A stretch of DNA of 64,000 nt from Isurus oxyrinchus (Eukaryota). Positions 14,941 through 46,947 of the stretch are shown piece after piece. The notes under the pieces are model-generated. The model searched no databases. It was given only the letters and a program-made list of their open reading frames with translations, and was not told where the DNA came from. Where the stretch lies: positions 24,366,001-24,430,000 of the forward strand of contig JANJGN010000026.1 of NCBI GenBank assembly GCA_026770705.1. The letters are read 5' to 3'. The first letter of the stretch is position 1, and each line of letters begins with the position of its first letter. The position numbers and the translations under genes were made by a program.

Positions 14941-15110
14941 AAAGACAAAACAAAACTGCGGATGCTGGAAATCCAAAACAAAAACAGAATTACCTGGAAA
15001 AACTCAGCAGGTCTGTCGAAGGGTCATGAGGACTCGAAACGTCAACTCTTTTCTTCTCCGCCGATGCTGCCAGACCTGCTGAGTTTTTCCAGGTAATTCT
15101 GTTTTTGTTT
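14941..15110. mobile_element. Penelope-derived inverted mini-element with 15-bp TSD
   Basis: TSD aagattagtgaagat at 14926-14940 and 15111-15125; hammerhead core at 15013-15043. Confidence 0.9.
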
Positions 15111-15125
15111 AAGATTAGTGAAGAT

Positions 15126-15500
15126 CCTTGCGCAGGCGCGGTACCGGGCAGCGACAGGAACATGCGCAATGTGAGCTCAAACCGGAGCATGCGCAGTCCA
15201 GAGTCCGGAGTTGACCGAAGGATTGAGAAATATCGAGAACAGGCGAGTGAAGGCAGTCTCTGAGTGGGGAGGAATGGAAGCGGCGGAGATGGCGGGGATT
15301 TTCATAAACACCCAGTAGAGGTCTGAAACCGTGAATAAGAAGCTACCGGTCCTGCGGTTGCATCGAACGAGGTGGCGGCAGGTGGGGCCCGCTTTGCCTT
15401 CAGAGAGAGCCCCGAGTAAACGGTCGCCATTTGTATAGGGGACAATGTGCAGCAGGGCGCATGCGCCGCCGCCATCTTCCACTGGAAAACGTGCAGCTGG
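15126..15500 (+). promoter_or_regulatory. CpG-island promoter and probable first exon with NRF1 and YY1 motifs, likely of a ZNF gene
   Basis: CpG-rich; GCGCATGCGC 15457-15466 and related motifs at 15129, 15161, 15187; YY1 CCGCCATCTT 15469-15478, AGATGGCGG 15287-15295, CGCCATTT 15425-15432; strand inferred from the downstream ZNF exons. Confidence 0.7.
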
Positions 15501-15505
15501 AGTCG

Positions 15506-16627
15506 GAATCACACAGAGCAGAAGAGGCCCTTCGGCCCATCGAGTTTGCACCGACACGTGAGAAGCACCTGACCTACCCACCTACCTAATCCCATTTACC
15601 AGCACTCGGCCCGTAGCCTTGAATGTTATGACGTGCCAAGTGCTCACCCAGGTACTTTTTAAAGGATAAAAGCAAAATACTGCGGATGCTGGAAATCTAG
15701 AACAAAAACAAAAATACCTGGAAAAACTCAGCAGGTCTGACAGCATCTGCAGAGAGGGATACAGTTGACATTTCGAGTCCGTATGACCCTTCATCAGAAT
15801 TAAGACATATAGAAATGGGATGAAATCTAAGCTGGTAAAAGGGGGTGGGACAGGAGAGCTCGACAGGGGGCCAGTGATAGGTGGAGGCCCAAGAAGAGAT
15901 TTCTAGCTTTTAAAGGATGTGAGGCATGCCGTCTCCACCACCCTCCCAGGCAGCACATTCCAGACTGTCACCACCCTCTGGGTTAAAATGTTTTTCCTCA
16001 CATACCCCTAAACCTCCTGCCCCTCACCTTGAACTTGTGTCCCCTCGTTACTGATCTGTCAACTAATGGGAACAGCAGCTCCCTATCCACCCTGTCCATG
16101 CCCCTCATAATCTTGTACATCTTGATCAGGTCGCCCCTCAGTTTTCTCTGCTCCAATGAAAACAACCCAAGTTTATCCAACCTCTCTACATAACTTAAAT
16201 GTTTCATCCCAGGCAACATGCTGGTGAATCTCCTCTGCATCCCCTCCAGTGCAATCACATCCTTCCTATAATGTGGCGACCAGAACTGCATACAGTACTC
16301 CAGCTGTGGCCTCACTAAGGTTCTACACAACTCCAACAAAACCTCCCTACTTTTGTAATTTATGCCTCAGTTGAAAAAGGCAAATGCCCCATCTGCCTTT
16401 TTTACCACCCCACTGACATGCCCCTCCACCTTCAGAGATCTATGAACACGTGCCAAGGCCCCTTTGTTCCTTAGGACTTTCTAGTGTCATGCCGCTTATT
16501 GAATACTTCCTTGTCAAATTACTCCTTCCAAAGTGTATCACCTCACATTTCTCAGGGTTAAATTCCATCTGCCACTTTCTGCCCATTTGACCATCCCGTC
16601 TATATCTTCCTGTAGCCCAAGACACTC
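15506..16627 (-). mobile_element. CR1 LINE 3' part
   Basis: LVRPQLEYCMQFWSPHYRKD; KWQMEFNPEKCEVIHFG. Confidence 0.9.
15668..15907 (-). mobile_element. Penelope pLTR fragment inserted into CR1; canonical CUGAUGA hammerhead core at 15763-15800
   Basis: TSD ttttaaaggat at 15657-15667 and 15908-15918. Confidence 0.85.
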
Positions 16628-17372
16628 CCAAAACAATTAGGAGAGCAAACGGGGTATGAAAAAGCTCTAGCTGGAAAGGCAGGGAAGATATTCCATAAGT
16701 ATATCAATAGGAAGAGGATAACCAGGAAAAGGGTTGGGCCCATTATGGACCAAGGGGGAAATCTATGGGTGGAGCCAGAGTGACAGTCTGGAATGCACTG
16801 CCTGGGAGGGTGGTGGAGGCGAGTTGCCTCACATCCTTTAAAATGGATGAGCACTTGGCACATCATAACATTCAAGGCTATGGGACAAGTGCTGGTAAAT
16901 GGGATTAGGTAGGTCAGGTGTTTCTCACGTGTTGGCGCTGACTCGATGGGCCGAAGGCCCTCTTTTGCACTTTGTGATTCTGTGATTAAGCTCCACCCTG
17001 CACTTTCTCTATTCCACTAATGCCTCCACTGATTTGCTTCCCTTGTACCTGCTAAAAGCCTCTCTTTTCCTTCTCATCGTATCCTGAATATCTCTGGTCA
17101 TGCATTGTTCTCTGGGCTTGTTACTCCTTCCTATCACCCTAGAGGGAACATGTTGAGCCTGCACCTTTCCCATTTCCTTTTCAAACGCCCCCCACTGCTG
17201 TTCTGTAGATTTCCCCACAAGTAGCTGTTCCTTGTCTACATTGGCCAGATCCTGCCTTATTTTACTAAAATCTGCTCTCCCCCAGTTCAAAACATTTTTT
17301 TTGCAACTTGTCTATTTCTTTGTCCAAAACAAGCTTAAATTGTACCATGTTATGGTTGCTATCACTAAAATA
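16628..17372. mobile_element. Rearranged CR1 pieces: + strand ORF2 fragment and tail (16628-16987), - strand ORF2 fragment (16990-17372)
   Basis: Tail at 16780-16987 is the reverse complement of 15506-15660 plus 15908-15980; NWGRADFSKIRQDL on the - strand. Confidence 0.8.
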
Positions 17373-17429
17373 CCCCGCCCCCCCCACCCCCCACCCCCCC
17401 CCCCACCCCCCACCCCCCACATGTGCGTT

Positions 17430-20620: not shown

Positions 20621-20942
20621 GTCCTGAGTGGGCATAGACCACGTAACAGATTCCCTTCCCTGAAGGACATTAATGAACCAGTTGGGTTTTTATGGCAATC
20701 CAGCAGTTTTCATGGTCACTTTTTCCTGGTGCCAGTCCATAAATGACCAGATTCATTCTGCTCAGTTTCACAACCTGCCTTTGTATTTTTGTAGGTTCTC
20801 TCTCACTCACTTTGTTTTAAATCAATTTCACAGGGTATTAGAAGGGGAGGATTTGCAGTTAGGCAACTCAAACTAAACATCACATCAGAATCTGACAGAG
20901 TCACCCAATTTATCGTAACCTCAATATCACTGAATTTTGAAC

Positions 20943-21719
20943 ATGGAAGGAAAAAACACCGCTCACAGTGAGGAGAAACTGTACTCGTGTTCTGTGTGTG
21001 GACAAGGCTTCAACCAATCTTCTGGCCTGTCAGAACATAAATGCCATCACAACGGGATAAAACCATGGCAATGTGGAAAGGGATTCAAATCCACGTCTCA
21101 CCTGGAACGTCATTGCCGCACTCACACTGGGGAGAAAACATTCATCTGCTCCGAGTGCGGGAAGGGATTCACGAGTTCATCCTATCTGCTGATACATCAT
21201 CGAGTTCACACTGGGGAGAGGCCATTCACCTGTTCTGAGTGTGGGAAGGGATTCCTTCAGTCATCCAACCTGCGGACACACCAGCGAGTTCACACTGACG
21301 AGAGACCTTTTAAATGTCCGGACTGCGGGAAGTACTATAGAGGTTCCACGGAACTGATGCGCCATCGACGTGTTCACACTGACGAGAGACCATTCAGGTG
21401 CTCTCTCTGCGGGACTGGATTCAGGTGGTTGTCTCAACTCACTGTACACAAGAACAGCCACACTGGGGACAGGCCATTCACCTGCTCTGTGTGTGGGAAA
21501 GGATTCACTCAGTCATCCAACCTGTTGAGACACCAGCGAGCTCATGCTGGGGAGAGACCATTTACATGCTCTGAATGTGGGAAAGGTTTTACCCGGACAT
21601 CCAACCTGCTGACACACCAGCGAGTTCACACTGGGGAGAGACCATTTACATGCTCTGAATGTGGGAAGGAATTTGCTGTTTTATCTACACTGCAGAGACA
21701 CCAGCAAGTTCACAAGTAA
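20943..21719 (+). CDS. KRAB-less C2H2 zinc-finger protein, 258 aa, 9 fingers with finger 2 degenerate
   Basis: Open [19 protein letters not shown]...HQQVHK*; TGERPF linkers; acceptor cacag at 20833; in-frame TGA at 20931 upstream of the ATG. Confidence 0.8.
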
Positions 21720-22362: not shown

Positions 22363-22675
22363 TTATCAAAACGAATTTAAGTCTGAGCAATGATTCACTA
22401 TTATTGTTAAATATTAACTGAATATAAGAACAGCCATGTGATATTAGCTCTTCCCCGCTACAGTCTGTACACACCGAAACTAGACAGAATCTTCCACTTG
22501 CTCCCATTTCCAGTTCTGATGGCTCAGAAAGCCTCCCTCAAACTTGCACATTCTGGCTGATTGATGTTGATTTGTGTAAGATTATTAAAGGCTCCTGCAG
22601 CATGAGCTCCATCACTAACAGTTGGTCAAAGCTACATTTCAGACGGGGCAACAAACGCATCAATGATTCTGTCTT

Positions 22676-22778
22676 AAAACAAAAACAGAATTACCTGGAA
22701 AAACTCAGTAGGTCTGGCAGCATCGGCGGAGGAGAAAAGAGTTGACGTTTCGAGTCCTCATGACCCTTCGACAGAACT
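22676..22778 (-). mobile_element. 103-bp Penelope-derived mini-element consisting of hammerhead plus short 3' segment, 10-bp TSD
   Basis: TSD attctgtctt at 22666-22675 and 22779-22788. Confidence 0.9.
22740..22778 (-). ncRNA. Minimal type I hammerhead ribozyme motif (CUGUCGA variant)
   Basis: AGTT-CTGTCGA-A-GGGTC-atgag-GACTC-GAAAC-GTC-AACT: helix I AGUU/AACU, helix II paired, palindromic ACGU in place of helix III. Confidence 0.72.
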
Positions 22779-25770: not shown

Positions 25771-26619
25771 AGGTTAACCAAACAAACCATTTTGTGTGAG
25801 AAACCTGTCGGCAGTGCCAGTGAATGGAAGGGCAGTAACAGGTAAAGAGTGATCATCAGTGATTTTGAAGGCTCACTTGTCAGTTTTCCTGGTCAGTCCA
25901 TTGGAAACCTCCAAACATTCTGGTAGCTCAGCACTGCCCTGTTTGATACACAAATATTTATCCTCTGTAAGACCCCGGTCCAGGAACAAAATTATTCCAA
26001 ACCAAATGAAGGAAACGAACAATTGAAGCACGTGATCTTGGCAGGGCCCTGTTAAACTCCAGAACAAACATTTTCCTCAGTAATATCGCACCCTTGGTTG
26101 AAGGGGTCTGGAGCAAAAGTAATGAGATTGTATAAATCAACTCAGATATAATGATATGTTTGATCAGAAAAAAATAACATTTTCATGAATTTGATATGAG
26201 ATCAATTGCATAATTACACCAAGTTCATGTGATAAAGTACATTAGTCCAAATTGGCATGTGAACCTTGTGAATTAAGGGAAACTAGGCATGGATTCTGCA
26301 GAAACTGCTTTTTCAAAAGGGAATTCAGCAATTTAATGAAAGGGAGGAAAAAAGACTGGTTTATTAAGAGAGAGCAGCAAATTGTGATTAATTAGTTTCT
26401 CATTTAAAAAGGGGTCTGAGATCGGATGATGGAAGGGCCTCTTTTGCCATTGTTTGGATACATGGTGCAAGGCCTTTTTATCATTCCATTGTTATATCAG
26501 CCTTGCTGCAGTGTTCCCATAATAGCAGCTGAATTCCATTTCTCCAAAACAGAGACCCAGAGTGCTGCTGCGTAAGAGTACAGTTTAACATTTCACACAG
26601 GCTCACTGCAGCCACGGCG

Positions 26620-26677
26620 GTTTCTGTAATGTAACCTAACACGCAAAAAGTCCCCGGTCTGAAACCAGGCAAAAGCA
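26620..26677 (+). pseudogene. tRNA-Val(AAC) pseudogene, 15-nt D-arm deletion
   Basis: GTTTCTGTAATGTAA-CCTAACACGC...GAAACCAGGCAAAAGCA, 58 nt. Confidence 0.8.
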
Positions 26678-28051
26678 TTGTTAAAACTTCCTCATTAAAT
26701 AATGGGAGTAATTTGCATCGTTGAAATTTACCTGAATCTCCTATGTTGCACCAAGGTCATAACATCACATGAATGCAGCAAAATGACACACTTGAGTAGA
26801 AATAGATGTTTGTATTTCACTGCGCTCACATATTAGCAGTTCGTTCAGTCAACAACAGAAATTAATGTGTCTTTTGATGCAGATTAACAGTTACTCACCA
26901 TGTCAAAGATGTCTTATAGTAATGTGTGCTCACAGGGGGAACAAAAATAATTAACGCATCATTCTCAAACTTGTCCTCTGTAAAATTATTTGATTGTTTT
27001 GTTGAAATGCTGACTGTTGTGCTAAATCTCAAATCAGACCCATATCAAGTGCAGTACCTTTCTTTTGCTTGCCAGTCAAGTTTGCAATTCGATGTTATTG
27101 TACATTTCAGAGAATCTCAAGTCAACTGAGGACATCAATACCAAATAGAAATATATTAATACTGAATGTTGAAAAATGTAAAATCAATGCAGAGTAAAGT
27201 GTGTTGAGAAGGGTGTTAATAATGACTGAGCAGAAAGCATTGCTGCCTGAGACATTTGCTGGACTGAGCCTTCTGCATTATGAAACTCAAAACAAACTGA
27301 GGCACCAGGTGGAAACTAAGAGTTGCCTTCCTCTAACAAGTGACATGACCTCTCAGTCTAACCTCCAAACAGTCTGGTAGATCAACACTGCCCTGTTTCC
27401 TGAAGAAAAATGTATATTCTGTGAAACTATATTCCCAGAACAAAGTTATATTAAACCAACAGAACAAAACGACCTATTGCAGTATGTGGTCCTGGCAGGG
27501 CTCTGTTTAACTGTAACAATCATTTTCCTCTGTGATATAACACCCTCAATTAACGAATTGTGTAGCAAATGTAATTAGATTGTGTAAATAACTCAGAAAT
27601 AATGAGATGTTTGATCAGAAAAATAAGCACTTCCGTCAATTCAATACGAAATCAAGAGATAAGTAAATAATGTTCATTTGCATAGCTACATAAGGAACAA
27701 AGTGTAAATCTTCATGGCACTGGGTGATGGAAATGTTGTTAATGAATGCAAACTAGGCATGGAATCTGCAGAAACTCCATTTTCAAAAGGGAATCATGCA
27801 ATTCATTGATATATAGAAAAATAATAAGTTCACTAACAGAGAGAAGGAAACTGAGATTAATTCGTTTGCTCTTTTAAAAGAGACAGGATGATGGAAGGGC
27901 CATGCTATGGAAACATGGTGTTTTGCCATTTTATGATGACATTGTTATATGAGCCTGTCTGCAGCATTACAAATTAAAGCAGCTGAGTTCCATTTCTCCC
28001 ATCCAAAGAGCCAGAGAGCTGCTGTGTGACAGCACGTAATATTGGGACAAT

Positions 28052-28124
28052 GTTTCTGTAGTGTAGTGGTTATCACGTTCGCCTCACACGCGAAAGGTCC
28101 CTGGTTCGAAACCGGGCAGAAACA
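28052..28124 (+). tRNA. tRNA-Val(CAC), apparently intact
   Basis: 73 nt; acceptor GTTTCTG/CAGAAAC fully paired; anticodon arm TTCGC-CTCACAC-GCGAA; B-box GGTTCGAAACC; A73; TTTT at 28142-28145. Confidence 0.93.
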
Positions 28125-29189
28125 TTATCCAAACTCGCCGATTTTGAGAGAGGAAAATTTGCATATGTCATGTTTGTTTTTGAATGTTACCTCAATCGCG
28201 CATGCTTCAGGCATAGTGCTTTTGCTCTTACCTGGGCCTTGAAGTGAATGCAGCAAAATCAGAAACGCTGAAATTTCATGGCACATTTCAAGAGTAAAGT
28301 TTGTTCACTTTCATCTCCCAAAGATAAGACGGATGTTCCCAATGATTGACCATAAAGCATTGCACCCGGAAACATTTGCTTGACGGACACGTCTACATTT
28401 TGTAATTCAAAACAAGCTGAGGCACCAGGGTGAAAATAACAGTTGCCTTCCTGCAACAAGTGACATGGATCCTCAGTCCAACCATTGGAAACCTCCAAAA
28501 AGCTTGGTAGTTCAGCACTGCCCTGTTTGTTACGCAAATAGTTATCCTCTGTAAATTTCCGGTCCAGAAACAAAATTATTTCAAACCAAATGAAGTAAAC
28601 GAACAACTGAAGTACACTAACTTGGCAGGGCCCTGTTAAACTCCGGAACAAACATTTTCCTCTGTAATATCGCACCCTCGATTGAAGGGCTGTGGAGCAA
28701 AAGTAATAAGATTGTAAAAATAGTAAGGTTGAAAAAATAATACTTTCGCAAATTCGATATGAGATCAATTGTATAATTACATCACGTTCATATGATAAAG
28801 TATATTAGGAACCCAAGTCCAAATCGTCATGTGAACCTTGTGAATTAAGGCAAATTAGGCATGGATTCTGCAGAAACTACTTTTTCAAAAGGGTATTGAG
28901 CAATTTAATGAAAGGAGGGAAAAACAGATTTATTAAAAGAGAGAAGGAAATTGTGATTAATTAGTTTGTTTGTTCAAAAAGGGGACAGAGGTCGGATGGT
29001 GCAAGGGCCTCTTATGCCTTTGCATGGATGCACGGTGCGAGGCCCTTTTATGATTACATTGTTACATCAGTCTCACTGCAGCGTTCCTGAGAATAGCAAC
29101 TGCATTCCATTTCTCCGCAACAGAGACCCAGATTGCTGCTGCGTTACAGCGCAGTTTAGCATTCCAGACAGGCTCAGTCAACCATGGCT

Positions 29190-29262
29190 GTTTCTGTAGT
29201 GCAGCGGTTATCACGTTCACCTCATACGCGAACGGTCCCTGGTTTGAAACCGGGCAGAAACA
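29190..29262 (+). pseudogene. tRNA-Val-derived full-length copy with CAT anticodon
   Basis: Loop CTCATAC; A-C mismatch in the anticodon stem; B-box GGTTTGAAACC. Confidence 0.8.
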
Positions 29263-30706
29263 TTATTAAAACTTACTCATTAAATGGTGAGGATAATTTT
29301 CATCGTTGAAGCTTACCTGAATATCTGATGTTGCATTTGCTCTCACCTAGGTCATAAAATGAATGCTGAGATTTCAAGACACACTTGAATGGAAATATAT
29401 GCTCGTATTTCACTGCGCTCACAGTTCGTTCAGTCAACAGCAGAAAATAATGGGTCTTTGGATGCAGCTTAACACTGTTACTCACCATGTCAAAGATGTC
29501 TCATTGTAATGTGTGCTCATAAAGACAGACAAAAGAGGGATCAGATCTAATTAACGCATCATTCTTAAGCCTGTTCCCTGCTGATTTTGTTGAAATGCTG
29601 ACTGTTGTGCTACATCTCAAATAAGACCCATGTCAAATGCATTATCTGGTGTCTGGCATTCTTTTGTTTGCCAGTCAAGTTTGCAATTCGACGTTGTTGT
29701 ATCTTTCAGAGATTCTCAATCCAACCGAGGGCACCCATATCAAATATATTAATACTGAATATTGAATAGCGTTTAAAATTGCCAAGGAAAGTTTGCTGAA
29801 TTTCGTCTGCTGAGGAGGAGAAGTCTGTTCTTAATGACTGAGCAGAAAGCACTGCTGCCTGAGACATTTGCTGGAACGAGCCTTCTGCGTTTTGAAATTC
29901 AAATAACCTGAAGCACCAGGTGGAAACCAAGAGTTGTCTTCATGTAAGAAATGACATGACCTCTCAGTGTAACCACTGGAATCCTACAAACATTCTGGTA
30001 GATCAGCACGACCCTGTTTCCTGAAGAAATATATATTCTGTAAAACTATATTCCCAGAACAAAATTATATTAAACCAACTGAACAAAACGACCTATTTCA
30101 GCATATGATCCTGGCAGGGCTCTGTTTAACTGTAACAATCATTTTCCTCTGTGATATAACACCCTTGATTAATGAGTCATGGAGCAACTGTAATTAGATT
30201 GTGTAAATAACTCAGAAATAATGAGATGTTTGATTAGAAAAATAAGCATTTTCATCAATTCAATATGAAATCAAGGTATAAGTAAATAATGTTCACTTGT
30301 GTAGCTACGTATGGAACAAAGTCTAAATCTTCATGGGACTGGGTGAGGGAAACGTTGTTAATGAAGGCAAACTGGGCATGGAATCTGCAGAAACTCAATT
30401 TTCAAAAGGGAATTGTGCAATTAATTGATATGCAGAAAAATAATAAGTTCACTTATAGAGAGAAGGAAACTGAGATTAATTCATTTGCTCTTTTAAAAAG
30501 CTGACAGAGACAGGACGATGAAAGGGCCATGGTATGGATACACGGTGTTATGCCATTTTATGATGACATTGTTATATGAGTCTGTCTGCAGCATTCCAAA
30601 TTATAGCAGCTGAATTCTATTTCTCCCATCCAAAGAGCTGGAGAGCTGCTGTGTGACACCACAGTTTAACATTCTGGATAGGCTGACTGCAGTCATGATG
30701 GCTGAT

Positions 30707-30765
30707 GTTTCTGTAGTGTAGTGGTTATCACTCGTGCCTCACCCGTTCGAAACTGGGCAGAAACA
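30707..30765 (+). pseudogene. tRNA-Val(CAC) pseudogene, 14-nt deletion
   Basis: 59 nt; A- and B-boxes retained. Confidence 0.8.
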
Positions 30766-32176
30766 TTATCCAAGCTTACCAATTTTGAGAGAGGAAAATT
30801 TGCATGTCAGGGTTGTTGTTGAATGTTACCTGAATCTCGCATACTACAGGCATGGTGCTTTTGCTCTTACCTGGGCCTTAAAATGAATGCAGCAAAATCA
30901 GAAATGCTGAAATTTCATGTCACACTGAGGTGTTCATTTTATGACCCGGCACGCATTTTAGCAGTTCGTCTGGTGTGCAAATCCTTCAAATAATCGGGAT
31001 TCAGAATAGAGTATCAGGAAAAATGACCCAGGCAGTTGTGGAAACCAAGGCGCAGTGCAGATCTGCTGGCTTCCCTCCTGTCTTCTACATGGATGTGATT
31101 TAGGCCCCAGAAGGCTTATCACCTGGAACAAAGGAGGGTCAAATATATGGAACGCATCATTCTCAAAACTGCTCCCAGCAAAATTCTTGCATTTTGTTTA
31201 ACAGCTAATTGTGCTCAATTTCAAATGAGCACAATATGGTTTGCATTACCTGTTGACTGGCATCCTTTCTTCTATTGATCATGTTTGAAATTCGAGGTTG
31301 GTGTATGTTTCAGAGGGTCTCAATTCAAACGAAGACATCAATAACAGATAAAATATTAATATTAAATATAGAATAACGGAAAAATACTGAGTAGAGTTTG
31401 TTTAATTTCGTCTTCCAAAGATAAGGAGGATGTTCCTCATGATTGAGCAGAAAGCATTCCACCCAGAGACATTTGCTTGACGGAATCGTCTACATTTTGA
31501 AATTGAAAACAAGCTGAGGCACCAGGGTGAAACCAACAGTTGTCTTCCTGCAACAAGTGACATCGACCCTCAGTTCAACCATTGGAAACCTCCAAGCATT
31601 TTGGTAGCTCAGCACTGCCCTGTTTGTTACACAAATATTTATCCTCTGTAAGGTTCCGATCCAGGAACAAAATTATTTCAAACCAAATGAAGTAAACGAA
31701 CAATTGAAGCACATGACCTTGGCAGGGCTTTGTTGAACTACTTAAATATTTTCCTCTGTAATATCGCACCCTTGATTGAAGGACTGTGGAGCAAGAGTAA
31801 TACGATTGTAAAAATAGTAAAGTTGAAAAAAATAACACTTTAGTAAATTCGATATGAGATCAATTGCATAATTATACCACGTTCATATGGTAAAGTATAT
31901 TCAGAACCCAAGTCCAAATCGTCATGTGAACCTTGTGAATTAAGGCAAACTGGGCATGGATTCTGCAGAAACGACTTTTTTGAAAGGGTGCTGAACAATT
32001 TAATTACATGGAGGAAAAGACAGGTTTATTAAAAGAGAAGCGAATTGTGATTAATTAGTTTGCTCGTTTAAAAAGGGGACAGAGGTCGGATGGTGGAAGA
32101 GCCTCTTATGCCATTGTAAGGATACATGGCGGTAGGACATTTTATGGTTCCAGGTAGGCTCGTTGGAGTCATGGCA

Positions 32177-32244
32177 GGTTCTGTAGTAGTTATCATGTAT
32201 ATCGACCACACGAACAGTCCCCGGTTCAAAACTGGGCAGAAACA
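32177..32244 (+). pseudogene. tRNA-Val pseudogene
   Basis: ggttctgtagtagttatca...gtccccggttcaaaactgggcagaaaca. Confidence 0.75.
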
Positions 32245-32491
32245 TTATTAAAACTTCCTTATTCAATCGTGAGTGTGATTTGCATCCTTGAAGCACAGCT
32301 GAATCTCCTATGTTGCAGGCAAATTGCATTTACTCTCACTGAGGACGTGCTGAGATTTCATGACACACTTGAGTGGAAATAGAAGTTCGTATTTCACTGC
32401 GCTCACATATTAGCAGCTCGTTCAGTCAACAATAGGAATTAATCTGCCTTTCGACACAGATTAACACAGTTACTCACAAAGTCAAAGATAA

Positions 32492-32589
32492 CAAAAACAA
32501 AAATAGCTGGAAAAACTCAGCAGGTCTGACAGTACCTGCGGAGAGGAATGCAGTAAACATTTTGAGTCTGGATGACTATTCATCAGAAC
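32492..32589 (-). mobile_element. Penelope-derived mini-element inserted in one array unit
   Basis: TSD tcaaagataa at 32482-32491 and 32590-32599; absent from the other units; CTGATGA core with G12 lost. Confidence 0.85.
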
Positions 32590-33759
32590 TCAAAGATAAT
32601 GTGTGCTCATAACGGCAGACAAAGAGGGATCAGATATAATGAACACATCATTCTCAAATTTATTCCCTGTGAAACTCTTTGATTTTGTTGAAATGCTGAC
32701 TGTTGAGCTGAATCTCAAATCAGACCCATATCAAGTGCATCCTGGTGTTTGGCATTCTTTTGCTTGCCAGTCAAGTTTGCAATTTGATGTTGTTGTATAT
32801 TCTAGAGAGTCTCAAGTCAACTGAGGGCATCAATATCAAATTTAAAAATAATAATACTGAATGTTGAATAACTGAAAAAAATGCTGCTGAGTAAAGTTTG
32901 TTGAATTTTGCCTGCTGAGGAGGAGAAAGATGTTCCTTATGATTGAGCAGAAAGCATTGCTGCCTGAGACATTTACTGGACCTTCTGCATTATGAAATTT
33001 AAAACAAACTGAGGCACCAGGTGGAAACCAAGAGTTGTCTTCCTGTAACATGTGACATGACCTCTCAGTCTAACCATTGGAATCCTCCAAGCATTCTGGT
33101 AGATCAACACTGTCCTGTTCCCTAAACAAATATGTATTCTGTAAGATTTCATTCCCAGGACAAAATTATTTCAAATCAAACGAATGGAACGTGATCTTGG
33201 CAGGGCTCTGTCTAACTGTATCAATGATTTCCCTTGATTAACGAGTTGTGGAGCAAATGTAATTGTGTAAATAACTCAGAAATAATGAGATATTTGATCA
33301 GAAAAATGAGCACTTTCGTCAATTCGACATGAAATTAAGAGAAAAGGTAAATAATGTTCATATGCATCGCTATGTAAGGAACACGAGTCTAAAGCTTCAT
33401 GGCATTGGCTGAGGGAAACAATGTTATTTATGGCAAATTGGGCATGGAACCAGCAGAAACTCCTTCTACCAAAGGGAATTATGCAATTAATTAATATTCA
33501 GAAAATTAACAGGTTTGCTAAAAGAGAGAAGGAAACAGTTTAATTCGTTTGCATTTTTAAAAAGTTGACAGAGGCAGAACAATGGAAGGGCCATGGTATG
33601 GATACATGGTGTTATGCCATTTTTTGATGACATTGTTATATGAGTCTGCCTGCAGCATTCTTATTTAAAGCAGCTGAATTCCAATTCTCCCAAACAAAAA
33701 AGCAGAGCTGCGTGACAGCACAGTTCTGGACAGGTTCACTGCCATGCCAGTTGCCCAGT

Positions 33760-33832
33760 GTTTCTCTGGTGTAGTGGTTATCACGTTCACCTTTCACGTG
33801 AAAGACCTCCGGTTCGAAACTGCGTAGAAACC
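33760..33832 (+). pseudogene. tRNA-Val-derived pseudogene with TTC anticodon
   Basis: TTCAC-CTTTCAC-GTGAA arm; mismatches in acceptor and T stems. Confidence 0.75.
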
Positions 33833-35504
33833 TAATCCAAGCTTGCTAATTTTGAGAGAGGGAAATTTGCGTCATTAGGTTGAATGTTGACTGAATCTCG
33901 CATGCTGCAGGCATGTTACTTTTGCTCTTATCTGGGCCTTAACATGAATGCAGCAAAATCAGAAGCACTGAAAATTCATGACATACTGAGTAGAAATAAA
34001 TGTTCGTTTTTTGACTCGGCACACATTTTAGCAGTTCGTCCGGTCAGCAACAGAATTTAGTGGGCTTTCGATGCAGATTTACATTATTACTCACCACCTC
34101 AAACATGTCTCATACTAAAGTGCACTCATAAAGACAGGCGCAAGCGATGCTGTAATTGAACCAGAGGGAATGGCAGAGCTGGTACAGAATCACTCCTTTA
34201 AATAATTGGTATTCAGAATAGAGTTTCAGGAAAAATGACCAAGGGAGTCGCGGAAACCAAGGCGCAGTGCAGACCTGCTGGCTTCCCTCCTGTGTTCAAC
34301 ATGGACGCAATTGAGGCGCAAGAAGGCTTATGACCGAGAACAAAAAGGGATCAAATATAATGAACGTATTATTCTCAAAACTGTTCCCAGTAAAATTCTT
34401 GCATTTTGTTTACAAGCTAACTGCGCTGAATTTCATATGAGCACCATATGATTTGCATTGCCTGCTGACTGGCATTCTTTCAGCTATCAGTCATGTTTGC
34501 AATTCAAGGTTGCTGTATATTTCAGAATCTCAATTCAAATGAAGGCATCAATAACAGATAAAAAAATAAATATTAAATAGAGAATAACGGAACAAATACT
34601 GAGTAAAGTTTGTTTAATTTCGTCTTCCGAGGATAAGATGGATGTTCCTAATGATTGAGCAGAAAGCAATGCTCCCGGAGACCTTTGCTGGACAGACACG
34701 TCTACATTTGGAAATTGAAAAAAAGCTAAGGCACCAACTGTTGTCTTCCTGCAACAAGTGACATGGCCTCTCAGTCCAACCATTGTAGCTCTCCAAATAT
34801 ACTGGTAGCTCAGCAGTGCCCTGTTTCCCAAACAAATATTTATCCTCTGTAAGATCCCGGTCCAGGAACAAAATTATTTCAAACCAAATGAAGTAAATGA
34901 ACAATTGAAGCACGTGTCCTTGGCAGGGCTCTGTTGAACTACTTAACAAACATTTTCCTCTGTAATATCGCACCCTTGACTGAAGGGCTGTGGAGCAAAA
35001 GTAATAAGATTATACAAATATTAAGATTGAAGAAAATAATGCTTTTGAACATTGGGGATGAGATCAGTTGCATAATTACATCATGCTCATATGGTAAAGA
35101 ATATTAGGGACCCAAGTCCAAATTGTCATGTGAACCTTGTGAATTAAGGCACATTAGGCATGGATTCTGCAGAAAGTACTTTTTCGAAAAGGTATTGAGC
35201 AATTTAATGAAAGGGAGGAAAACACAGGTTTATTGACAGAGGGAAGCAAATTGTGATTAATTAGTTTACTCGTTTAAAAAGGGGGCAGAGGTCGGATGGT
35301 GGAAGGGCCTCTTATGCCATTGCATGCATACATGGTGCTGGAAACATGATGCTAGGCCATTTTATCATTACGTTGTTATATCAGTCTTGCTGCAGCGTTC
35401 CTGAGAATAGCAGCTGAATTCCATTTCTACGAAACAGACACCCAGGGTGCTGCTGCTTTACAGCGCAGTTTAGCATTCCAGACAGGCTCACTGCAGTCGC
35501 AGCA

Positions 35505-35578
35505 GTTTATGTAGTGTAGTGGTTATCACATTTGCCTAACATGTGAAAGGTTCCCCGATTTGAAACCAGGCAAAAGCA
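35505..35578 (+). pseudogene. tRNA-Val(AAC) pseudogene
   Basis: Loop CTAACAT; broken B-box GATTTGAAACC. Confidence 0.8.
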
Positions 35579-37015
35579 TTATTGAAAATTACTCATTCAA
35601 TCGTGAGAGTGGTTTGCATTGTTGAAAACTGAGCTTAGTTTCCAATGTTACAGGCATATTGTGTTTACTCTCACTGCGGATGTGCTGAGATTTTGTGATA
35701 CACTTGAGTGGAAAATGAAATTGATGTTTGTCTTTCACTGCACTCACGTATTAGCAGCTTGCTCAGTCAACAACAGAAATTAATCTGTCTTTTGACACAG
35801 ATTACCCACCATGTCAAAGATTAATGTGCACTTGTAATGGCAGGCAAAGAGGAATCAGATCTAATTAACGCATCATTCTCAAATCTGTTCCCTGTGAAGT
35901 TCATTAATTTTGTTGAAATGCTAACTGTTGTGCTAAATCTCAAATCAGACTCATATCAAGTGCATTACCTGGTGTCTGGCATTCTATTGTATGCTAGTCA
36001 CGTTTGTAATTCAATGTTGTTGTATATTTCTGAGAGTCTCAAGTCAACCGAGGGCTTGATGCCATGCTTGATGTCAAATAAAAAAATATGAATACTGAAT
36101 GCTGAATAACTGAAAAAAAAATGCTGCTGAGTAAAGTTTGTTGAATTTCGTCTTCTGAGGAGGAGAAGGGTGTTCCTAATTATTGAGCAGAATTCATTAC
36201 TGCCTGAGACATTTGTTGGACCGAGCCTTCTGCATTATGAAACTCAAAACAAACTGAGGCACCAGGTTGTCTTCCTGTAACAAGAGTCATGACCTCTCAG
36301 TCTAACCATTGGAATCGTCCAAGCATTCTGGTAGATCAACACTGCCCTTTTCCCTAAACAAATATGTATTCTGTAAGATTTCATTCCCAGGACAAAATTA
36401 TTTCAGACCAAACGAACGGAACGAAAAATTTCAGCATGTGATCTTGGCAGGGCTCTGTCTTACTGTATCAATGATTTCCCTCAATTAACGGGTTGTGGAG
36501 TAAATGTAATTGTGTAAATAACTCAGAAATAATGAGGTGTTTGATCAGAAAAATGAGCACTTTCGTCAATTCGACATGAAATCAAGAGAAAATGTAAATA
36601 ATGTTCATATGCATCGCGACGTAAGGAACACAAGTCGAAATCTTCATGGCATTGGGTGAGTGAGTGAAACAGTGTTACTTAAGGCAAACTAGGCATGGAA
36701 TCTGCAGAAACTCATTTTTCAAAAGGGAGTCGTGCAATTAATTGATATTCAGAAAAATAACAGGTTTGCTAAAAGAGAGAAGGATACTGCAACTAATTCG
36801 TTTGCATTTTTAAAAAGCTGAGAGACAGGATGATGGAAGGGCCATGGTATGGATACATGGTATTATGCCATTTTATGGTGACATTGTTTTATGAGTCTGT
36901 CTGCAGCATTCCAAATTTAGTAGCTGAATTCTATTTTTCCCAAAGAGCCAGAGTTGCTGCGTGACAGCACAGTTTAACATTCCGGAAAGGCTCACCAGTA
37001 TCATGACTGGCCAAT

Positions 37016-37088
37016 GTTTCTGTAGTGTAGTGGTTACCACGTTCGCCTCACACGTGAAAAGTCCCCTGTTTGAAACCTGGCAGAAACG
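37016..37088 (+). pseudogene. tRNA-Val(CAC) pseudogene
   Basis: 73 nt; disrupted T stem and B-box (CCCTGTTTGAAACCTGG); G73. Confidence 0.8.
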
Positions 37089-38730
37089 TTATCTAAGCTT
37101 ACTAATTTTGAGAGGAAAATTTGCGTGTGTCAGGTTTGTTGTTGAACGTTACCTGAATCTCGCATGGTGCTTTTTCTCTTACCTGAGCCTTAAAATGAAT
37201 GCAGTAAAATGAGAAACGGTAAAATTTCATGGCACATTGCTTACAAATAGGTGTTCATTTTTTTGACTCTGCACGCAGTTTAGCAGTTCGTCCGGTGACC
37301 AACAAGATTTAGTGGGCTTTAATGCAAGTTTACGCACCATCACTAAGATGTCTCATAGTCAAGACAGGCGCAAGCGATGCTGTAATTGAACCAGAGGAAA
37401 TGACAAAGCTGGTACAGAATCACTCCTTTAAATCACTCCTTTAAATAATCGGTCTTTAGAATAGAGTATCAGGAAAAACGATCCAGGGAGTCATGGAAAC
37501 CGAGGCGCAGTGCAGACCTGTGGTCTTCCCTCCTGTCTTCCACATTGACGCGGTTTAGGCGCCAGAAGGCTTCTCACCTGGAACAAAATATAAAGAACGC
37601 ATCATTCTCAAAACTACACCCAGTAAAATTCTTGCAAGTTTTTTTTTCAAGCTAACTGTGCTGAATTTCAAATGAGCACCATGTGGTTTGCATTACCAGT
37701 TGAATGGCATTCTTTCATGTTTGACATTCGAGGTTGGTGTATATTTCAGAGTCTCAATTCAAATGATGGCATCAATAACAGGTACAATATTAATATTAAA
37801 TATAGAATAACGGAACAAATACTGTGTAAAGTTTGTTTAATTTCGTCATCCAAGGATAAGAAGGGTGTTCCTAATGATTGAGCAGAAAGCATTCCACCCG
37901 GAGACATTTGCTGGACGGACACGTCGACATTTTGTAATTCTAAACAAGCTGAGGCACCAGGGTGAAATCAACAGTTGTATTCCTGCAACAAGTGACGTGG
38001 ACCCTCAGTCCAACCATTGGAAACCTCCAAACATCCTGGTAGTTCAGCACTGCCCTGTTTGTTACACAAATATTTATCCTCTGTAGGATTACAGTCCAGG
38101 AACAAAATTATTTCAAACCAAATGAAGTAAACGAACAATTGAAGCACGCGATCTTGGCAGGGCCCTGTTAAACTCCTTAGTAAACATTATCCTCTGTAAT
38201 ATCGCACCCTCGATTGAAGGGCTGTGGAGCAAAAGTAATACGATTCTAATAATAGTAAGGTTGAAAATATAACACTTCCATAAATTCGATATGAGATCAA
38301 TCGCATAATTACATCATGTTCATCTGGTATAGTATATTCGGGACCCAAGTCCAAATTGTCATGTGAACCTTGTAAATTAAGGCAAACTCGGTATGGATTC
38401 TGCTGAAACTACATTTTCAAAAAGGAATTGAGCAATTTAATGAAAGGGAGAAAAATAACAGGCTTATTAAGCGAGAGAAGCAAATTGTGATTAATTAGTT
38501 TTCTCGTTTAAAAAGGGATCTGAGATCGGATGATGGAAGGGCGTCTTTTGCCATTGCATGGATACATGGTGCACGGCCATTTTATAATTACATTGTTACA
38601 TCAGTCTCGCTACAGCGTTCCTGAGAATAGCAGCTGTATTTGTATTCCATTTCTCCGCAACAGAGATCCAGATTGCTGCTGCGTTACAGCGCAGTTTAGC
38701 ATTCCAAAAAGGCTTGGTAAAGGCATAGCA

Positions 38731-38802
38731 TTTTCTGTAGTGTAGTTTTTGTCACGTTCCCCTAAATGGGGAAGGTCCCCGGTTCAAAACCGCGCAGAAA
38801 CA
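38731..38802 (+). pseudogene. tRNA-Val-derived pseudogene
   Basis: Internal TTTTT at 38746-38750 (Pol III terminator); loop CTAAATG. Confidence 0.75.
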
Positions 38803-40449
38803 TTATGAAAACTTCTTCATTAGATAGTGAGGATAATTTGCATCATTGAAGCTGACCTGAATCTTCGATGTTGCATTTGCTCTCACCGAAGTCATAAAAT
38901 GAATGCAGCAAAATCAGCGCGTGCTGAGATTTCATGACACACTTGAGTGGAAATCGATGTTCGTATTTCACCGCGCTCACACATTTGCAGTTCGTTCAGT
39001 CAACAACAGAAATTAATGTATATTTCAATGCAGCTTAACAGTTACTCACCATGTCAAAGATGTCTCTTTGTAATATGTGGTCATAAAGAGGGAACAGAAT
39101 CTAATTAATGCATCATTCTCAAGCCTGTTCCTTGTAAAATTCTTTGATTTTGTTGAAATGCTGACTGTTGTGCTAAATCTCAAATCAGACCCATATCAAG
39201 TGCATTACCTGGTGTCTGGCATTCATTTGTTTGCCAGTCAAGTTTGCAATTCGATGTTGTTGCATATTTCAGAAAGTCTCAAGTCAACAGAGGGCATCAA
39301 TATCAAATATATTAATACTGAACGTTGAATAACGTTTAAAACTGCTGAGAAAGGTTTGTTGAATTACATCTGCTGAGGAGGAGAAGTGTGTTCCTAATGA
39401 CTGAGCAGAAAGCATTGCTGCCTGAGACATTTGCTGAACCGAGCCTTCTGCATTATGAAATTCAAAACAAACTGAGGCACCAAGTGGAAACCAAAAGTTG
39501 TCTTCCTGTAACAAGAGTCATGACCTCTTAGCCTAACCATTAGAATCCTCTAAACATTCTGGTAGATCAACACTGCCCCTTTTCCTAAATGAATACATAC
39601 TCTGTAAGATTTTATTCCAAGAACAAATGTATTTAAACCAAATGAACGAAACAAACTATGTCAGCATTTGGTCTTGGCAAGGGTCTGTTCAATTGTGATA
39701 ATCAATTCCCTCTGTGATATAACACCTTCGATTAGTGGGTTGTGGAGAAAATATAATTAGAATATATAAATCAACTCAGAAATAATGAGATGTTTGATCA
39801 GAAAAATAAGCACTTTTGTAAATTCGATATGAAATCAATAGAAAAGTAAATAATGTTCCTATGCAGAACTATGCAAGGAACACACGTCTAAATCTTCATG
39901 GTATTGGGTGAGGGAAACAATGTTAATTAAAGTAAACTAGGCATGGAATCTGCAGAAACTTCTTTTTCAAAAGCGAATTTTGCATTTAATTGATATTCAG
40001 AATAATAACAGGATTACTAAAAGAGGGAAGGAACCTAAGAATAATTCGTTTGCTCCTTTAAAAAGCAGACAGAGATAGGATTATGGAAGGGCCCCTCATG
40101 CCATTGAATGGACACATGGTGCTTTTCCATTTTATGTTATATGCCTGCAGCATTCCTGATACTACCAGCTGCATTCCATTTCACCGAAAAAAAGACCCAG
40201 AGTGCTGCTGCATGACAGCATGGCTTAACATTCCGGATAGGCCCTGGTCAATCGGACAGCTCACCCTTCATTCTCCCCTGATTCCGGTTCCCAAACAGTT
40301 TGTAAATATTCACAGAACTGGAAACTGGGTTTCTGTTTTGGTTCCTCCTCCATTTTTCCACCTGCGAACCAACGTTTTCCAAAATCTCGTCACAATGTTC
40401 CACTCTCGAGGATCACCAGAGGACTGGGGTTTATGATAATAAATAAAGA

Positions 40450-42068: not shown

Positions 42069-42139
42069 ATGTTTTAACTGAGCATGCTGCTATTCGGCGC
42101 TCCCTCTCCTACCGCCCGGGGTTGGCCTTCATTAGGGAA
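42069..42139 (+). pseudogene. Very degenerate tRNA-Glu remnant
   Basis: attcggcgct...cccggggtt...tagggaa; upstream 41920-42030 is homologous to the flank of 43093. Confidence 0.5.
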
Positions 42140-42189
42140 TGTTGTTTTCTTGTTGTGCGAACAGTCACAACGAACTGATCCTTGAGTCT

Positions 42190-42426
42190 GAAACAAAAAC
42201 AGAAAATGCTGGAAAAACTCAGCAGACCTGGCAACACCTGTGGAGAGAGAAACAGAGTTAACGTTTTGAGTCCGTATGACCCTTCTTCAGGCGGACTTTT
42301 CACTCGGACTCGAAATGTTATCTCTGTTTCTCTCTCCACAGGTGCTGCCAGATCTGCTGAGCTTTTCCAGCATTTACTGTTTTTGTTTCAGATTTGCAGC
42401 ATCCGCAGTATTTTGCTTTTATTTTT
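42190..42426. mobile_element. Penelope-derived inverted mini-element
   Basis: TSD atcct[t/g]gagtct at 42178-42189 and 42427-42438; opposed arms; CTGAAGA core on - at 42256-42290. Confidence 0.85.
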
Positions 42427-43092
42427 ATCCTGGAGTCTCTTTCCCCTGGGATCAACAAAACCCGTCATTTCTCTTCTTTCATTCTCAGTCTTCCATTTCC
42501 AGTTGGAGTCGGTTGCCCTTCTGGGGTCTTCAACAAATCCACTTGGGCGGACAAGTGGCATCTGAAATTTAATGTAAGGAATGTGAAGTGATTCATTTTA
42601 GTCGGAAATAAAGCTCCCAGATTTATGTTGCACAGCGAGTGGTTAGGATCCGGAATGTATCAATGCGGCTCAGTTCCACAAGCAGGTGAATGAATTTTTA
42701 CCATTCCAAACTACATTCACATTAGTTTTGTAGCTTCATATTAAAATAGTTCAGAGAGATAAGGGAGATTGGAAAGATTCCTTTTGTATCTTTTGGAACT
42801 GAAAATGTCTGAGATGGAGAATACGAGTTAAAAAATTGATGTGAAAGTGGAAGAATTTGATGTCTATCAGTTGCTTTTAGTGATGAAGCTGCTGTGCGCT
42901 GCCTTGTCAGTTTCACAGCAGCCGCGGTGATTAGGTTGGTGGGTTTTGGAAATTGAAATTTGCATTTCAACAGCTTTGGTACTATTTCACCACACTGTCG
43001 ATTTCATGTACCGGCTAATAGCAAATGGTCCAGAATGAAGAAAATGGCAAAAGCTGCGTGGATATCCCAAGATGCAAGCGCAGCAAGCAGCT

Positions 43093-43164
43093 TCCTTGAT
43101 AGTCCAGTGGTTAGGATTCGGCGCTTTTGCCGCTGCGGCCTGTGTTTGCATCCCTGTCAGAAGC
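43093..43164 (+). pseudogene. tRNA-Glu(TTC-family) pseudogene
   Basis: TCCTTGATAGTCCAGTGGTTAGGATTCGGCGCTTTTGCCGCTGCGGCC...; B-box and acceptor stem broken. Confidence 0.85.
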
Positions 43165-43870: not shown

Positions 43871-43952
43871 TGTAGTCAGCAGGATTTGAACCTACGTGGA
43901 AAAGTCCCAAAGGATTTCGAATCCATCGCCTTAACCACTCGGCCACAGCTAT
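43871..43952 (-). pseudogene. tRNA-Ser pseudogene, 82 nt, CGA anticodon in an AGA/TGA-type body
   Basis: ATAGCTGTGGCCGAGTGGTTAAGGCGATGGATTCGAAATCC...GGTTCAAATCCTGCTGACTACA; acceptor mismatches; A73. Confidence 0.85.
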
Positions 43953-44200
43953 GCTAGCGTCATTCATATAAAACAATAGGTGGCTACTGCAGAGCAGGAG
44001 GACATTCGCCCCCTCGTGTTCGTGCCAGCTCTCTGGAAAAGTGAATCAACTGGTTCCACACAGGCTCCCGTTCCCCCACAGCAATCATATTTGTATTGTC
44101 TCTTCTTGTTCTTCCCATCAAAATAAAATACAGCACACTCCACTTCAACTGAAGCTTCCCCGTCTAAAGACTTCATGACACGGCGCGATTACCAGCTCAT

Positions 44201-44281
44201 TGAAACAGTGGGAGTCGAGTCCATGCCCCCACAGAAAGAGCGGCTTTAACACAGCACTTTAGACCACTCAGCTACGATAAC
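44201..44281 (-). pseudogene. tRNA-Leu (AAG/TAG-family) pseudogene
   Basis: GTTATCGTAGCTGAGTGGTCTAAAGTGCTG...GGGGGCATGGACTCGACTCCCACTG. Confidence 0.7.
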
Positions 44282-45704
44282 ACAATGGACGCCTTTTACC
44301 TTACTTGGTATTTCCATTGAAATATAGACAGTACGGAAAAGGGCAGGAAGCGGCGTTCAGACACCTCGAACCTGCTCTGTCACTTGCTTAGATCATAGCA
44401 GATCCCCAGCCTCAACACCAATTTTCTACCCCATCCTGATATCCCTTTATTTCGCTAGAATCAAAAAATCTATCCATCTTAACCTTCAATGTACTCATTG
44501 ACTAAGGATCTGTTGATGTCTGGGCTACAGTACTCCAAAGATTCACAACCCTTTGAGTGAAGAAATGTCTCCTCATCTCTGTCCTAAATGGCTGACACAT
44601 TATCCGCAGAAAGTGAGCCCAGTTGTAGGCGCTCCAGCCAGAGGAAAAACAGCCTCTCACCATCAACACCCTCAAACTGTCTCAGAATTTCACACTTTGC
44701 AAAGAGGAAAACGAGACATTGACAGAGACAGAGAAACTGTGATGACGAACGCAGATATATGGAGACAAGGAGAGACCGATAGAGACACAGAGTTGGTTAG
44801 ACACCGAAAGGAACAGATATACTTCATTCCATATGATTGATAACTTAGATTGAAAGATGGAAAAGAAGAAGAGAATAAAATACTTACATTTAAACAGAGC
44901 CTTTCACGAACTCAGGGTAACAGAAAGTGCTGCAGAGCCGATGGAGTGCTTTTGAAGTGTAGTCAGTGTTGTAATTTAATGACACAGAGAGACAGTTCGA
45001 CAAAAATGCTGATCCACAAAATGACAAAATGTGATTTTAAGAACTACACCTCAATGTAAATATTTCATTCTATGTTTCTAAACTTTTCATTGTTTGATCA
45101 GATTCAGCAGGTAGAATCCTTGACAAAACAGGGACAAAGCATTCCATTTCTATAAGATCAGCGCTCACCCTTCCCCTTTCTAGAGTAAAGAGCTTCAGGC
45201 TGTTCAGCCTTTCCAGGTGATTATAACATTTGGGATTGAACTTTTATTTTCCTGTTCGTTCTGAGGTATGACCACAGTAGAAACAGTTCCTAAGGCCTGA
45301 GGGATTTCAGTTTGGACTATTTGTATTTACAAATTCATTCTCTCGGTGTGTCCATTGCCTTAACTCTTCGACCACAATAACTCGGTTTCTATCTGTTTTA
45401 ATGTTGCTCAATGCAAATGTCAGTCATCCCCCACTTTGTAACTTAGGGCACTTAGAGGCTGAGCAGTCTCCATTCAAAAACAAGTAGAGCCGGAATTCCA
45501 CTCTTGCATGTTTTAAAGCTGCTCTTTTTTGTTTGTACGATTGTAATATGAAGTACCCAACTAATATAAATAAAGTTTTGATTAGTAAAAGTGGGGAACT
45601 GAAGCGCATTGACACACACACAGGAACGCACACATACATATAAGACAGAGAGTGACAGAGACACAAGGACAGGCAAACATTCAGAAAACACAGATATCAC
45701 CAAA

Positions 45705-46947
45705 ACAAAAACAGAACCTGGAAAAACTCAGCAGGTCCGGCAGCATCAGCGGAGAAGAAAAGAGTTGACGTTTCGAGTCCTCATGACCCTTCGACGGAAC
45801 TTGAGTTCGAGTCCAAGGAAGAGTTGAAATATAAGCTGGTTTAAGGTGTGTGTGTGGGGGGCGGAGAGATAGAGAGAGAGAGGTTGGGGTTGGGGGATGT
45901 GGTTGTGTGGACAAACTAGCAGTGATAGAAGCAGATCATCAAAAGATGTCAACGACAATGGTACAATAGAACACATAGGTGTTAAAGTTAAAGTTGGTGA
46001 TATTATCTAAACGAATGTGCTAATTAAGAATGGATGGTAGGGCACTCAAGGTATAGCTCTAGTGGGGTTTTTTTATATAATGGAAATAGGTGGGAAAAGG
46101 AAAATCTTTATAATTTATTGGAAAAAAAAGGAAGGGGGTAACAGAAAGGGGGTGGGGATGGGGGAGGGAGCTCACGACCTAAAGTTGTTGAATTCAATAT
46201 TCAGTCTGGAAGGCTGTAAGGTGCCCAGTCGGAAGATGAGGTGTTGTTCCTCCAGTTTGCGTTGGGCTTCACTGGAACAATGCAGCAAGCCAAGGACAGA
46301 CATGTGGGCAAGAGAGCAGGGTGGAGTGTTAAAATGGCAAGCGACAGGGAGGTTTGGGTCATTCTTGCGGACAGACCGCAGACTAGGCACCTTACAGCCT
46401 TCCGGACTGAATATTGAATTCAACAACTTTAGGTCGTGAGCTCCCTCCCCCATCCCCACCCCCTTTCTGTTTCCCCCTTCCTTTTTTTTTTCCAATAAAT
46501 TATAAAGATTTTCCTTTTCCCACCTATTTCCATTATATAAAAAAAACCCACTAGAGCTATACTTTGAGTGCCCTACCATCCATTCTTAATTAGCACATTC
46601 GTTTAGATAATATCACCAACTTTAACACCTATGTGTTCTATTGTACCATTGTCGTTGACATCTTTTGATGATCTGCTTCTATCACTGCTTGTTTGTCCAC
46701 ACAACCACATCCCCCAACCCCAACCTCTCTCTCTCTCTCTATCTCTCCGGCCCCCACACACACACCTTAAACCAACTTATATTTCGACTCTTTCTTGGAC
46801 TCGAACTCAAGTTCTGTCGAAGGGTCATGAGGACGCGAAACGTCAACTCTTTTCTTCTCCGCTGATGCTGCCGGACCTGCTGAGTTTTTCCAGGTAATTC
46901 TGTTTTTGTTTTGGATTTCCAGCATCTGCAGTTTTTTTTGTTTTTAT
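45705..46947. mobile_element. Penelope insertion made of two inverted 3' ends (palindrome) with 16-bp TSD
   Basis: TSD cacagatatcaccaaa at 45689-45704 and 46948-46963; strand switch at 46380/46381; hammerhead motifs at 45763-45801(-) and 46810-46848(+). Confidence 0.92.

Follow-up and report, generated by a model that had tools for sequence, protein, structure and literature searches.

The arrangement of reverse transcriptase (RT), CX2-5CxxC linker and GIY-YIG domain is the layout of Neptune and Nematis (PMC8557442), which belong to the endonuclease-bearing (EN+) Penelope-like elements (PLEs). One paper raises the possibility that hammerhead ribozymes are no more than parasites of endonuclease-bearing Penelope elements (PMC8557442). 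Minimal PLE hammerheads cleave slowly even with a canonical core (PMC4209133; PMC6765202), and that of Anolis Poseidon requires the element's protein for cleavage and can be dispensed with for insertion in vitro (PMC11167929). A type III hammerhead has been scanned for pairwise mutants, of which those in the CUGA turn had low activity, the C3-G8 swap excepted (PMC9901934). A natural hammerhead with C in place of the usually invariant core base A6 (A6C) is slow but active, with a rate of <0.1 per minute (PMC3088659), and prefers Mn2+ (PMC7151607). Here we describe a 64-kb stretch of the shark Isurus oxyrinchus (JANJGN010000026.1, 24366001-24430000; the window), which lies within the 4.98-Gb genome used for genome-wide counts. 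The window contains twelve hammerhead cores, all from one Penelope lineage, in whose younger subfamilies A6 has been replaced by U (A6U). The substitution was fixed in the master lineage and retained through several subfamily replacements.

The origin of A6U was traced in an unbiased sample of 1.36 Mb, made up of 136 regions of 10 kb at even spacing, in which a profile search returned 141 hits to the pseudo-long terminal repeat (pLTR) of the element. The hits were assigned to six classes from hand-picked seeds, with positions 6 and 7 ignored, and the 95 hits spanning the core were counted. The classes S0 (12/12), S1 (11/13) and S2 (8/8) have A at position 6. S3 (10/11), S4 (6/6) and S5/6 (42/45) have U there, and no S5/6 copy has A. 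Divergence at non-CpG sites falls along the same series, from 15.6% in S0 through 9.3, 5.5, 4.8 and 4.8% in S1, S2, S3 and S4 to 1.8% in S5/6, and reaches 1.1% in the 20 copies of the youngest group, S6. The open reading frames (ORFs) of the copies diverge concordantly, by 4.9-7.1% in S2, 3.5-7.2% in S3 and 0.6-2.9% in S6. The consensuses and divergence ages that the initial annotation had called for thus place A6 in the three oldest classes and U6 in the three youngest. The annotation had also proposed that A6U was present in an actively transposing master. This is borne out by the presence of U6 in 58 of the 62 copies that span the core in the three youngest classes (one has A), and in both pLTRs of the elements with open 926-codon frames described below. 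Inside the motif, S2 and S3 differ at position 6 alone; therefore, A6U arose once, as CUGUUGA, and the change of U7 to C followed later.

The remainder of the hammerhead was kept, as the initial annotation had noted. Every other consensus feature is present (C3 U4 G5 N7 G8 A9, G12 A13 A14, the A15.1-U16.1 pair and H17), and helix I, helix II, the extra base after A9 and the palindromic bases of helix III are shared by every subfamily. Between S0 and S1, helix II changed in a compensatory manner. The motif departs from the minimal type I hammerhead at A6, which is U in S3-S6. A search against the Rfam hammerhead families gave no match at E-values up to 5.

The exact 34-nt motif of the CUGUCGA copy at window position 15013 has 59,315 matches in the genome and the reversed-pattern control has none, which excludes both chance and local duplication. 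The same 34-nt context with A6 and any base at position 7 has 132 matches. The initial annotation had named two outcomes that would speak against it, restriction of CUGUCGA to a few local copies and a young consensus of CUGANGA; with 59,315 U6 motifs against 132 with A6, neither was found. A looser family pattern matches 87,182 times, and the exact motifs of the last A6 and the first U6 (CUGUUGA) subfamilies occur 837 and 1,970 times, respectively. Any canonical core with identical spacing gives 10,137 matches that are heterogeneous in sequence, as compared to the 59,315 exact U6 copies, so that searches requiring CUGANGA overlook the dominant young family of this genome. The A6 copies in the young context look like back-mutations, since the 10 of the 132 that were inspected are spread over subfamily backgrounds. 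The genome-wide counts and the subfamily ladder rule out local duplication or CpG decay as the source of U6. No parallel young A6 lineage was seen: the commonest exact A6 motif among those tested is that with 837 copies, and the ORF divergence of S2 compared with S6 further contradicts such a lineage. The 5' part of the element is present in twenty sequencing runs from nine studies, mostly of two organisms. The contigs of these two organisms list no alternative base at position 6, which is weak evidence, since rows for CpGs known to be variable are missing as well.

Four loci (L041-L044) were hand-picked for closely spaced motifs, and in two of them, L041 and L043, an unbroken frame of 926 codons is flanked on either side by a CUGUCGA hammerhead. 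L041 consists of 3.35-kb units in tandem, which are identical at 3338 of 3339 aligned bases, and L043 is a pLTR-ORF-pLTR unit with a U6 hammerhead in both pLTRs. L042 is full-length and frameshifted, and L044 contains truncated arms. No canonical hammerhead of the same type matched in the four loci. The 926-codon frames have the single ORF of an EN+ PLE, with RT followed by GIY-YIG. The Pfam domain RVT_1 scores above the cut-off in L041 (32.9 versus 29.6 bits) and just below it in L043; GIY-YIG gives a weak match in L041 only (E 9e-4, below the cut-off), with an LYIG motif at residue 841. A linker of the CX4CxxC form, CPRKRCNTC, occupies residues 792-800. The arrangement of copies is also that of EN+ PLEs, with tandem-derived direct repeats of the pLTR, inverted truncated copies and an optional tail, seen as two 3' end classes. 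Based on these sequence features, the host element is classed as an autonomous Neptune-type Penelope, with the clade assigned from the linker motif. A non-LTR retrozyme, made of non-coding tandem units without an ORF, was rejected, because the motif sits in coding elements and their truncations. The two 3' end classes were observed among loci L001-L030 at about +97 and +135 from C3, about 35-40 nt apart, and agree with the optional tail and the paired RT start sites known from PLEs.

Between S3 and S5/6, the 39-nt motif acquired changes at N7, at two loop bases, at H17 (U to C) and at one helix II base, which turned an A-U pair into G-U. No other core base was altered, and helix II is still paired. 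Of 7 positions at which hammerheads tolerate variation, 4 changed, as compared to 1 of the 31 constrained ones (Fisher p=0.002; 0.010-0.015 with the loop pair taken as one event). The two classes of positions follow the standard hammerhead consensus and were applied after the data were seen. At the rate of the 3' untranslated region (UTR; 76/362), the probability that no more than 1 of the 31 constrained positions would change is 0.006. Young copies display about fourfold more variation at loop than at core positions. Freeing U4, G5, A9, A13, A14 and A15.1 in the search raised the count to 61,524 (by 2,209, or 3.7%), with four singleton variants among the first 100 matches listed. When the extra A and five bases of the loop were left free instead, the count rose to 68,663 (by 9,348, or 15.8%). 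Most of this gain comes from a single loop variant, seen 8 times among the first 100 matches listed, often in both arms of a pair. Sub-masters therefore bear loop variants and no visible core variant at the six freed sites. Together, these comparisons provide moderate evidence for continuing selection on the hammerhead geometry, which may act on chemistry, protein binding or an overlapping promoter.

The 5' junctions were mapped for 110 of the 141 hits, the others being 29 S0 hits and 2 at region edges. Forty-nine junctions reach beyond -40 and 28 fall within -8..+1 of C3, the 5' edge of helix I. None lies at +28..+34, where RNA cut by the ribozyme would begin (+31), as compared to about three expected from the flanking density (P=0.046). 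The pattern is alike in the two groups of classes, with 10 junctions at the helix I edge and 0 at the cut site among 35 in A6 classes, and 18 and 0 among 75 in U6 classes. From the contrast between 28 and 0 of 110 junctions we infer that the 5' edge of helix I is the site of transcription initiation, with the motif as the first 39 nt of the RNA, and that uncut RNA served as the template for integration both before and after A6U. The stretch from +28 to +35 relative to this start reads GAAACGTC, at a position like that of a downstream promoter element (DPE), and resembles the downstream element RGACGTGY described for Drosophila Penelope (PMC2377424).

Several features surround the putative start site. 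Short pLTR copies begin no more than a few bases from the 5' strand of helix I (28 of the 110 junctions; L043:4584; window 22778 and 46810), which is suggestive of an initiator. A 10-codon upstream frame (L043:4639-4671) opens 56 nt past the presumed start of transcription, with an ATG that every subfamily retains; a donor-like GT was gained at S3, and the AG directly before this ATG was lost at S4. Just upstream of the ribozyme (window 46795-46809; L002 and L008), S6 gained a second helix II 3' strand and GAA. The gain includes a stretch like the post-cleavage sequence and could compete for helix I or II pairing in read-through RNA. A permuted second hammerhead formed through the upstream GGACUCGAA copy in S6 was discarded on inspection, because the bases available do not suffice to form helices I and III.

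The initial annotation offered three alternatives for A6U, a tolerated variant, a slow ribozyme or a protein-binding structure, and the data favour a slowed ribozyme or a retained fold over free decay. We give about even chances to an attenuated hammerhead that is still selected as a fold and is not needed for integration. The minimal hammerhead lies in the terminal repeats of an autonomous element whose master lineage fixed A6U and went on multiplying. According to this proposal, the ribozyme would be strongly slowed, which is likely given the conservation of the rest of the motif, and the hammerhead fold would probably still be under selection. Any cutting would proceed in a dimer formed through the ACGU palindrome, probably with the help of the element's own protein. 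New insertions would be copied from uncut RNA, so that cutting is probably not needed for jumping; because a cut would deprive the RNA of its capped end, a slower ribozyme would be of little disadvantage and might be of benefit. Several results weigh against this proposal. Cut-site junctions are equally missing in the A6 classes and so carry no information on the effect of A6U. The motif overlaps the putative start site and the DPE-like position, and constraint on promoter DNA could therefore explain part of its conservation. Core stasis by itself does not reach significance by the synonymous clock: over the span that followed A6U, the masters came to differ at 24 of 225 fourfold sites, by which zero change in 10 core positions has a probability of 0.32, and at most 1 change in 31 has a probability of 0.14. 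The loop excess among young copies goes back to one or two mutations in masters rather than to thousands of independent ones. Energy models give preference to the hammerhead fold in none of the subfamilies, with A6 or U6, as monomer or dimer, and no published cleavage rate for A6U was found, including in the available portion of PMC9901934. An alternative helix made by U6 that would sequester the core is not supported, since it rivals helix I only in S3 and S5, is weak in S6 and is negligible in ensembles.

A possible, less probable explanation is that A6U killed the chemistry and that the sequence has been kept as internal promoter DNA, as a fold bound by the element's protein, or as both. 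Such a promoter predicts the short copies that begin at the 5' edge of the motif (28/110) and agrees with the resemblance of GAAACGTC at +28..+35 to the Drosophila element (PMC2377424). The tail downstream of the ribozyme is likewise nearly constant across subfamilies, and Naiad elements are described as proliferating without canonical hammerheads (PMC8557442). However, promoter motifs would span +1..+5 and +28..+33, which does not obviously account for U4-A9 or the helix II pairing, and the changes since A6U fall at sites that a hammerhead tolerates. Furthermore, the change at H17 replaced U with C, which makes the better cleavage triplet. It is unlikely, in our estimate, that position 6 is a selected attenuator in Penelope hammerheads, with A6 lost, perhaps repeatedly, from shark elements so that slow or protein-dependent cutting spares the capped mRNA; if so, the element would provide a natural protein-dependent A6U ribozyme, with which to test whether such ribozymes serve or burden their elements. 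Improbable, too, is a near-neutral effect of A6U in a dimeric minimal architecture with an extra A after A9 and help from a protein. No compensatory hammerhead change accompanied the step from S2 to S3, and the lineage was not set back, as neutrality would predict; nevertheless, changes at position 6 are deleterious in the hammerheads for which tests are described (PMC9901934, PMC7151607, PMC3088659), and no core in the alignment of 56 metazoan motifs in the PMC4209133 supplement matches CUGU, although the descriptors used there favoured A6. We consider it very improbable that the ribozyme is dead and drifting, with the remaining core bases not yet hit. The unchanged 10 core sites are compatible with drift at the synonymous rate (P=0.32), but the concentration of changes in tolerant positions (p 0.002-0.015) and the contrast between loop and core among young copies are not expected from it.

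All nine core motifs named in the initial annotation were located in the window (Table 1), with the CTGAAGA core at 42290 lying on the minus strand, and three further CTGAAGA cores that it did not list were found at 3991, 14168 and 14614, all on the minus strand. The CTGTTGA motif of the long element at 5800 is present as stated; it represents the older U6/U7 subfamily with 1,970 exact copies and is not a decayed CUGUCGA. The cores at 45797 and 46814 sit in the opposite arms of a single inverted insertion, and the arms have a common 16-nt target-site duplication (TSD); therefore, the window holds three independent insertions of the CUGUCGA type, not four. The CCG at 45797 is not found in the sister arm at 46814, which has a helix II mismatch. 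Perfect TSDs had been taken as the mark of young copies. Those of 15, 10 and 16 nt are indeed exact, but so are the 11- and 10-nt TSDs of the canonical copies at 15797 and 32586, and thus TSDs neither mark age nor separate the classes. The claim of intact CpGs in all young copies fails, because the two arms at 45797 and 46814 have a CpG to TpG change downstream in common. The canonical copies are more decayed, as proposed, and it is this divergence from the subfamily consensus, 7-15 mismatches per ~100 nt versus 1-3 in CUGUCGA-type copies, that tells the classes apart.

Table 1. Hammerhead-bearing copies and related features of the Penelope lineage in the window.
Feature	Position	Strand	Core	Details
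Minimal type I hammerhead, youngest subfamily	15013..15047	+	CUGUCGA (U6, C7) at 15013	15-nt TSD at 14926 and 15111
Short fold-back insertion with the 15013 hammerhead as right arm	about 14941-15110			Inversion junction alters helix I 5' strand
Hammerhead, youngest subfamily	22740..22778	-	CUGUCGA at 22774	10-nt TSD at 22666 and 22779
Solo pLTR end carrying the 22774 core	22676-22778	-		Begins at helix I 5' edge
Hammerhead, private U4C added to U6	45763..45801	-	CCGUCGA at 45797	Left arm of inverted insertion 45702-46947
Hammerhead	46810..46848	+	CUGUCGA at 46814	Right arm of insertion 45702-46947; 16-nt TSD at 45689 and 46948
3' UTR and end of GIY-YIG frame	before 46810 hammerhead	+		Insertion 45702-46947
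Older element, 5'-truncated, frameshifted: RT end, GIY-YIG region, 3' UTR, pLTR	4208..5859	+		93% and 86% identity to full-length young L043
Hammerhead, oldest U6 subfamily (S3)	5796..5834	+	CUGUUGA at 5800	
Canonical copy, last A6 subfamily (S2)	15763..15801	-	CUGAUGA at 15797	11-nt TSD
Canonical copy (S2), decayed	32552..32590	-	CUGAUGA at 32586	10-nt TSD
Fold-back pair of older copies (S1)	14527..14750	.	CUGAAGA at 14614 (-) and 14617 (+)	
Fold-back pair of S1 copies	42187..42430	.	CUGAAGA at 42290 (-)	Plus arm truncated
S1 copy	14049..14172	-	CUGAAGA at 14168	
S1 copy	3863..3999	-	CUGAAGA at 3991	

A long C-rich insertion at 4850-4905 breaks the frame of the older element. Elsewhere in the window, a degenerate tandem array with a period of ~1.5/3.1 kb (25800-40300) contains tRNA-like genes, the best at 28052-28124 (64 bits) and the rest decayed, and a tRNA match with a long variable arm (43.9 bits) lies at 43871-43952 on the minus strand. 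Arrays of C2H2 zinc fingers with an 84-nt period, some with stops, occupy 250-1909, 7190-7810 and 20934-21719. Four frames at 55115-58279 on the minus strand presumably resemble immunoglobulin heavy-chain constant exons, which would point to a cartilaginous fish as the host.

The closest described motifs are the minimal type I hammerheads of metazoan PLEs (Cervera and de la Peña 2014, PMC4209133), which are alike in the 4-bp helix I, the extra nucleotide after A9, the G10.1-C11.1 pair, the palindromic positions 15.2-16.2, the lack of a helix III loop and the presence in both pLTRs. The core variant described there is a compensated U3-A8 pair, whereas the U6 reported here lacks compensation and is fixed, with at least 59,315 exact copies. 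No natural A6U was found in the literature searched, a search not extending to the PLE hammerhead variants of Lünse 2017, and the available portions of PMC6155905 and bioRxiv 10.64898/2026.07.22.740005 contain nothing bearing on position 6. The A6C hammerhead of phage Bcep176 (PMC3088659, PMC7151607) similarly combines a natural change at position 6 with an otherwise intact core. It differs in having C instead of U and in being a single motif of a phage, for which slow cleavage with a preference for Mn2+ has been measured, whereas the variant here is fixed in a high-copy animal element known from sequence. The Poseidon element PAc of Anolis (Frangieh et al. 2024, PMC11167929) also carries a pLTR hammerhead just upstream of the 'tail' at which RT initiates. 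PAc inserts from uncut RNA, mutation of its hammerhead leaves insertion in vitro normal, and reads ending at the cut site were not observed, with which the junctions reported here agree. However, PAc belongs to another clade, its hammerhead overlaps the start of the ORF, and the portion of that paper available to us mentions no change at position 6. The EN+ PLEs of the Neptune clade (Craig et al. 2021, PMC8557442) share the RT-linker-GIY-YIG order, partial tandems, inverted 5'-truncated copies and the optional tail, and the cuganga descriptors given there would miss a U6 hammerhead. Compared with these systems, A6U is a real and fixed change of the core, without compensation, on an autonomous element that was active recently. 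The motif has the architecture of PLE hammerheads and lacks their A6. Since the A6 ancestor and U6 descendant subfamilies differ by one base of the motif, and copies with open frames exist, the role of the ribozyme can be tested with natural sequences.

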